Origin: Escherichia phage PhiR49_2 | Strand: one strand, 5' to 3' | Sequence record: PV340570.1 | Length of the DNA stretch: 40,988 nt | Part shown: piece by piece, positions 40,784 to 40,988 of the stretch | Numbering within the stretch: the stretch's first letter is position 1 | Layout of the letters: every line of letters starts with the position of its first letter | The notes under the pieces: model-generated | Seen by the model: the letters and a program-made list of their open reading frames with translations, nothing else | Told to the model about the DNA's origin: nothing | The model's database searches: none | Position numbers and translations under genes: made by a program

Positions 40784-40809
40784 TGTCAAGGGTGAAGGAA
40801 AGTGATTTT

Positions 40810-40868
40810 TTGGGGCATGCATGGGGCAAAAATATTTGTTGTGGGGCATTTTGGGGCATGATTGGGAC
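40810..40868. repeat. Phased direct repeats of TGGGGCA(T)
   Basis: Copies near 40810, 40821, 40841 and 40851, plus a degenerate TTGGGACA at 40861; spacing of about 10-11 or 20 bp. Confidence 0.55.
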
Positions 40869-40988
40869 ACTTTGTTACATATGAACTTTGCCGATTTTTA
40901 TATGACATGGAAATACAACGCTTTGATTCTTCTAAATAAAAAACATGCTCTTGGGCGTTCTTTAGTGATTTTTAAAAATTCCGTATCA

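Follow-up and report, generated by a model that had tools for sequence, protein, structure and literature searches.

Phased TGGGRCA heptamers on both sides of the attachment core of a yecE-inserted prophage as probable arm-type sites of its integrase

The subject of this analysis is a cluster of short repeats at the right end of the genome record of Escherichia phage PhiR49_2 (PV340570.1), the whole of which, 40,988 nucleotides (nt) in length, is referred to here as the window. The heptamer TGGGGCA occurs in this cluster in four exact plus-strand copies (40811-40817, 40822-40828, 40842-40848 and 40852-40858), followed by a fifth plus-strand copy with one mismatch, TGGGACA (40863-40869). The start-to-start spacings of 11, 20, 10 and 11 bp place the copies at 0, 1.05, 2.95, 3.9 and 4.95 helical turns (10.5 bp per turn), and since these values are near whole turns, all five copies lie on one face of the helix, in agreement with a first-pass annotation of the window, which had reported four to five phased copies. 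The same annotation had assigned them to an AT-rich, non-coding stretch beyond the last gene; indeed, the stretch 40725-40986, which lies past the gene dinI, has a G+C content of 35%, and the RefSeq copies of identical DNA carry no annotated coding sequence over it. Two small minus-strand open reading frames (ORFs) across the repeats, of 55 and 40 amino acids (aa) and not annotated in those RefSeq copies, were dismissed, and scans against Rfam and for promoters and terminators gave no match on the TGGGRCA repeats. At the left end of the window are two minus-strand genes identified by Pfam, namely int (32-1345), coding for a tyrosine integrase (Int) of 437 aa, and xis (1401-1637), coding for a 78-aa excisionase (Xis) of the DUF1233 family, XisR/YdaQ-like (PF06806, E 1e-32).

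By sequence comparison, the window is an entire lambdoid prophage inserted in the yecE gene of E. coli and cut exactly from attL to attR. Many E. coli chromosomes contain its final 539 bases with 100% identity, and in E. coli 09-02E the same right junction runs via CACGCAGTTAAAGTGGCGGGCAT into a fragment from the 5' end of yecE, followed by yecD; the other end of the same prophage, ~49 kb off in that genome, consists of xis, the 437-aa int and the remainder of yecE. The junctions were placed by aligning attL and attR of 09-02E with the empty yecD-yecE site of K-12. This comparison with an empty site, which the first-pass annotation had proposed as a check, gave attB as CACGCAGTTAAAGTGGCGGGCAT and located the right end of the window exactly at the attR of the yecE-inserted prophage. 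The window begins two bases ahead of the attL copy of the core region (CACACAGTTAACATGACGGGTAT, 3-25), in which CACACAGTTAA at 3-13 is common to attB and attR; the earlier statement that no core was visible at the left edge was therefore wrong. Of the attR copy, only the first two bases (CA, 40987-40988) are included and the remainder lies just beyond the window, which explains why no matching right-end core could be seen at first reading. Positions 7-13 form a putative 7-bp overlap, CAGTTAA, flanked by the imperfect inverted repeats TCACA and CATGA, and the arrangement TCACA-CAGTTAA-CATGA reads as a canonical C-O-C' core. The att annotated in the Stx2e phage phiP27 is 11 bp long and has the same sequence, and in Stx2 II a 7-bp att is annotated that aligns with CAGTTAA. 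Measured from the overlap centre, the right-end heptamers occupy the phage arm of attR at -128 to -180; they are thus 128-180 bp from the crossover and not well inside the prophage, the location that had been named as counting against an attachment-site role.

The yecE junction shows one further feature. In a comparison with the attL of locus L004, the phage DNA that follows the crossover on its right (CATGACGGGTAT...) imitates the yecE sequence that it displaced (AGTGGCGGGCAT). It is because of this phage-borne, yecE-like stretch after the core that RefSeq annotates in lysogens an intact DUF72 (YecE) ORF, which overlaps the int stop; the reading frame of the target gene thus seems to be rebuilt by the prophage.

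The heptamer was also found on the other side of the core, within the 3' end of int, where TGGGGCA at 78-84 is followed 11 bp further by TGGGACA at 89-95, both on the plus strand. This pair, TGGGGCA-N4-TGGGACA, is oriented like the attR copies, with its members at +71 and +82 relative to the overlap centre; together with the cluster at 40811-40869, it provides the reconstituted attP with the motif in both arms. The motif is distinct from the core, as TCACA-CAGTTAA-CATGA does not contain it. Altogether, TGGGRCA occurs 13 times in the 41 kb, and seven of these copies are located within ~180 bp of either prophage end, the six internal ones being at 9950, 18186, 21685, 22021, 27520 and 34983. It is to be noted that all 13 copies are on the plus strand and none on the minus, a bias for which strand composition may be a sufficient cause.

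To place these elements in a comparative frame, attP was rebuilt from the records of five further phages, making six sites with the window's own. In the order of Int identity to the window, these phages were phiP27 (96%, yecE core), Stx1_499 (76%, yecE-like core), Stx2 II (68%, different core), SaltyDalty (65%, different core) and Rac (43%, ttcA core). On the int side, every rebuilt attP contained, at 72-88 bp from the core start, two (T)GGGRCA copies exactly 11 bp apart; the opposite side had, 111-176 bp out, one or two pairs of this kind, or in Rac three single copies, and the orientation was constant throughout. In the multiple alignment of the six sites, the heptamers and a few scattered single positions were the sole columns conserved in all, the arms being otherwise largely unalignable, and among the closer P arms (P-EibC, phiP27, phi80 and mEp237) the substitutions were concentrated in the spacers and spared the heptamers. 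When the five right-end copies are numbered from left to right, the first two, 11 bp apart, make up a distal pair, the fourth and fifth a core-proximal pair, and the third is an extra site 10 bp before the fourth. The core-proximal pair was present in all six attP sites compared. Heptamer 1 is kept in P-EibC, phiP27, phi80 and Stx2 II, and heptamer 2 reads TGGGACA in phiP27 and P-EibC; heptamer 3 is present in P-EibC, degenerate in phiP27 (CGGGACG) and deleted in phi80, and is therefore the least conserved site.

The intervals between the heptamers and the core contain elements of their own. On the P side, a predicted IHF site on the minus strand (40916-40928, AATCAAAGCGTTG) matches the consensus WATCAANNNNTTR perfectly, the number of such matches expected in an attP of this size being ~0.01 by our own estimate, and its TGAT core is kept in the P-arm alignment. 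An IHF-like site with one mismatch to the consensus (AATCAGTAAGTTA, 33-45, minus strand) lies between the core and the P' pair, so that predicted IHF matches are found on both sides between heptamers and core. The attP and P-arm alignments revealed two additional conserved blocks on the plus strand. The first, CATATGAACTTTGCCGA (40878-40894), is situated just core-proximal of the heptamers, and its place is taken in SaltyDalty, Stx1_499 and Stx2 II by tandem 10-11-bp AAGTTCGTTAA-like repeats. The second, GCTCTTGGGCGTTCTTTAGTGATTTTTAAAAAT (40947-40979), is adjacent to the core and consists of the hexamers GCTCTT, GTTCTT and GATTTT, phased at 10 bp; it is kept in five of the six attP sites, including ones with a different core, and is absent from Rac. 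Xis or some other accessory protein may bind at this block. The alternative that 40947-40979 acts as a sib-like retroregulator or as a terminator was rejected, since no hairpin or terminator was detected there.

In five of the six phages, the P' pair is translated in one frame as a variable Int tail (e.g., YVPMMPH, RAPDVPQ, FAPSLPQ, SVPYMPH), and in Rac the Int stop comes earlier and the pair is non-coding. The synonymous positions within the P' heptamers are invariant across genera, the second proline codon being always CCC, which is a rare codon in enteric bacteria, and the four spacer bases vary freely. The fixed synonymous sites, the free spacers and the non-coding pair in Rac together lead to the conclusion that the constraint acts on the DNA; the tail motif (V/A)P-x-x-(M/V/L)P(H/Q) of Int seems to be dictated by the DNA heptamers. 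As an aside, the final ~20 codons of int thereby run through int's own putative binding sites (window 32-100).

The Int protein itself has a domain content appropriate to such sites. Its N-terminus matches Arm-DNA-bind_2 (PF12167; residues 7-70, E 1e-23), and it has in addition the tyrosine-recombinase catalytic domain. The N-terminal domain (approximately residues 7-70) was predicted by modeling to comprise three strands and a helix; in a search of the Int sequence against solved structures, the catalytic domains were matched and this N-domain was not. For a broader view, one genome per species was scanned with an Int alignment, which retrieved 80 loci from Citrobacter, Enterobacter, Pantoea, Yersinia, Providencia, Proteus, Xenorhabdus and other genera, with Int sequences 45-89% identical. 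Of the 80 loci, 75 carry the pair TGYCCC-N5-TGYCCC in the exact 11-bp register at the 3' end of int, whereas the same test applied to 480 control windows of equal size within the gene gave a single hit. Among the five exceptions, three have a pair with one mismatch. The other two, the Pantoea-like loci L166 and L172, have TGTGCTA-N4-CGTGCTw (2436-2453 in each) in place of the TGCCCCA pair, at the same location and spacing, and their Int N-domain is altered in its first strands (GVAPNKNH instead of GVENHGG, and also EGQRRWE); these two loci may represent a switch of arm-site specificity. Across the 80 loci the N-domain is 58-93% conserved, as against 44-90% for the remainder of Int, which fits a constant arm motif combined with a shifting core specificity. 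A corresponding Int scan of viral contigs returned only relatives at least 90% identical, mostly ending 3 bp past int, and was uninformative for footprinting.

These comparisons also bear on the simplest alternative, namely that the repeats are a functionless chance cluster or a simple repeat generated by slippage. In its favor, TGGGGCA is not over-represented across the window, its count of 10 being unremarkable against 8 expected; however, the chance of five same-strand copies within 53 nt is ~1e-10 by a Poisson estimate, and the motif, its spacing and its position are kept down to Int identities of 43-45% while the flanks diverge. The comparative data effectively refute this explanation, and we assign it a practically negligible probability.

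An alternative of more substance concerns the excisionase. Phased direct repeats are typical of excisionase sites, such as those of lambda Xis, and the heptamers could accordingly be sites at which Xis coats and bends the arm in excision, rather than Int sites. The window Xis is homologous to XisR of Rac, which has been shown to bind attR, shifting an attR fragment in a gel-shift assay (PMC4632033), and the Rac attR holds three (T/A)GGGGCA copies. Furthermore, Xis homologues lie beside Int in all six phages compared, and because of this universal co-occurrence, Int sites and Xis sites can be told apart only by the weaker means of identity comparison. Several points nonetheless speak against Xis. 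The motif sits in both arms, whereas lambda-type excisionases, to our knowledge, bind one arm only, and its most universal occurrence in the 80 loci is the P' pair, right beside int. It is unchanged at loci where Xis is only 27-45% identical, and where the pair has changed, in L166 and L172, the Int N-domain has changed with it, the Xis of these loci being no more divergent than that of many loci that keep the motif. There are also better candidates for Xis sites in the phased repeats that are confined to the P arm, i.e., the block at 40947-40979 and the tandem AAGTTCGTTAA-like repeats of the relatives. On this balance, we consider it quite improbable that the heptamers belong to Xis.

A host or phage regulator had been offered by the first-pass annotation as an alternative to the integrase, and the obvious target of such a factor would be the SOS-regulated promoter of dinI. 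This last gene of the window (40476-40724, minus strand; DinI family by Pfam) has a -35 hexamer, TTGACA, at 40789-40784 on the minus strand and two LexA boxes (CTGT-N8-ACAG; 40740-40755 and 40768-40783) overlapping its promoter. The heptamers begin 22 bp upstream of the -35 hexamer, next to the LexA boxes, as upstream sites for a transcription factor might, and phi80 and mEp237 retain both dinI and the repeats without this Int. However, the dinI/LexA-box module is common to ~90 phage records (94-99% identity) that bear unrelated integrases, and the homology of these records stops sharply at 40793, 18 bp before the first heptamer, with a different integrase beyond; mEp460 shares dinI and the LexA boxes with the window as far as 40793, and beyond that point it has another integrase and lacks the heptamer repeats. 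The reverse combination is seen in phiP27, where the same Int accompanies the repeats and dinI is lacking; the repeats of Stx2 II likewise have no adjacent dinI, and the motif also recurs at the 3' end of int, remote from any dinI gene. As to phi80, its repeats belong to a captured attR junction that still bears a yecE fragment. The contrast of mEp460 with phiP27 amounts to a double dissociation, by which the repeats travel with int and not with dinI in the sequences compared, and a regulatory role at the dinI promoter is accordingly very improbable.

Overall, with a probability of roughly 0.85, we interpret the heptamers at 40811-40869 and the pair at 78-95 as arm-type sites of the prophage's own Int, functioning in a lambda-like intasome. 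This reading derives from where the heptamers lie, at attR and attL, from the domains that Int contains, and from the conservation of motif and geometry with the integrase family, and it supports the first-pass suggestion of integrase arm-type sites at an attachment site, to which the second arm has now been added. Four of the properties that mark arm sites are found: the heptamers lie in the phage arms that flank the crossover core, and outside the core; the motif occurs in both arms and is unlike the core-type sequence; the cognate Int has an N-terminal arm-binding domain besides its core-binding and catalytic domains; and the motif follows the integrase lineage, independent of the core or attB sequence and of the neighboring genes.

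The mechanism that we propose is as follows. Excision would join the two ends into an attP in which the distal pair, the proximal triplet, the IHF site, the conserved block, the core, the IHF-like site and the P' pair follow one another, the core being made up of C, the 7-bp overlap CAGTTAA and C'. The N-domain of Int would bind the TGGGRCA heptamers, and neighboring heptamers, 10-11 bp apart on one helix face, would allow cooperative loading of Int. The C-terminal domains of the same Int protomers would bind the core sites, the arms and the core would be united by IHF-induced bends as in the lambda intasome, and Xis would redirect the P arm for excision. As there are seven candidate sites for four protomers, integration and Xis-dependent excision probably use different subsets of the seven. 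In this scheme, we infer the binding itself, its cooperativity, the role of IHF and the usage of the sites largely by analogy with lambda.

In that textbook system, the attP arm-type sites P1, P2 and P'1-P'3, with the motif C/AAGTCACTAT, are part of an intasome of heterobivalent Int, IHF and Xis, in which the N-domain of an Int protomer binds an arm site and its C-terminal domains bind a core site. The window resembles lambda in that both arms contain sites, all of them external to the core and unlike the core sites in sequence, with neighbors 10-11 bp apart; in that the P' sites are located approximately +70 to +85 from the crossover and the P sites at a greater distance, past a predicted IHF site; and in that Int has a small N-terminal domain of three strands and a helix, and the excisionase gene adjoins int. 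It differs from lambda in the motif, TGGGRCA, and in the arrangement of its seven candidate sites as pairs rather than as 2+3; moreover, the P' pair is inside the int frame, Int is of another subgroup (PF12167 AB domain, 437 aa), and the sites of the window are predicted from sequence.

Closer relatives provide a more direct comparison. The Int of phiP27 is 95.6% identical to that of the window, and phiP27 has the same 11-bp core, the same yecE site, and heptamers at the same distances from the first base of the core (-176/-165/-135/-124 and +76/+87). The window module is the phiP27/yecE int-att module. phiP27 differs in its degenerate third P-arm copy, in having no dinI by the arm, and in the remaining phage, which is unrelated (contractile-tail morphogenesis genes); the GenBank record of phiP27 annotates only the 11-bp attL and attR, and no arm sites. 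IntR and XisR of Rac (E. coli K-12, ttcA) belong to the same Int and Xis families, with identities of 43% and 31%, respectively, and Rac has a TGGGGCA/GGGGGCA pair at +73/+84 and three (T/A)GGGGCA copies at -144/-125/-114. Unlike the window, it has a 26-bp core, in ttcA, a P' pair that is non-coding, and no conserved block next to the core.

A more general reading, which joins these observations, would regard TGGGGCA-N4-TGGGGCA as an Enterobacterales-wide arm-site code of the PF12167 (IntBPP-1/IntR-type) integrases, embedded in the int frame, such that the C-terminal tail of Int (xAPxMPH) is largely a by-product; within this reading, binding of Int to the 3' end of its own gene could in addition exert feedback on int expression, or on the read-through from int across att. 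We regard this joint proposition as doubtful and offer it as a speculation. If true, such a code would supply a simple signature for the ends of prophages of this kind, many Stx phages included. If the interpretation of the heptamers is right, it would in itself establish how the attachment site is built at yecE, a hot spot for Shiga-toxin phages. In practical terms, the signature of the prophage boundary would be paired TGGGRCA copies in 11-bp register, found once at the 3' end of int and a second time ~130-180 bp in from the opposite end, and the heptamer arms would mark the DNA required to rebuild a working attP for integration vectors. The understanding of site-specific recombination would not be changed by these arm sites. 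That yecE is a hot spot, with an att of 11 or 21 bp, was already known; the arm sites of this widespread integrase family, which serves phiP27, the related Stx1 and Stx2 phages compared here, Rac and numerous related prophages in enteric bacteria, are the new part, as no description of them was found in the searchable literature (yecE, Stx phages, heptamer, DUF3596).

The 21-bp att appears in the study of Nakamura et al. 2021 (PMC8112680), which described attB-in-PP_1, a yecE-derived secondary attachment site inside prophages, and covered the att and its yecE-like flank only, not the arm or the repeats. Copies of the attR junction, homologous to window 40794-40988, were observed in phi80 (2466-2770), mEp237 (same range) and PPompW_132418 (43384-43700). 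Each contains the P arm with heptamers, the core and the first ~100 nt of yecE, and the copies of phi80 and mEp237 reach the end of yecD. They resemble the window in bearing this same attR junction (P arm, core and 5' fragment of yecE), and differ in being captured junctions within other phages; the cognate integrase is missing from the phi80, mEp237 and PPompW prophages. Four heptamers are intact in the phi80 copy, the middle one having been deleted, and three of four are decayed in the PPompW copy, which agrees in position and sequence with the attB-in-PP_1 site.

Lastly, a hairpin (gccgcagcacgtcttaagcaagaacgtgctgcggt) was observed at 40375-40406, between a tail-fibre-assembly remnant and dinI. 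Its match to the 3' end of CssrB, an Rfam family, scores 36 bits (E 1e-5), below the gathering score of 76, and the hairpin is probably just a shared terminator-like stem.
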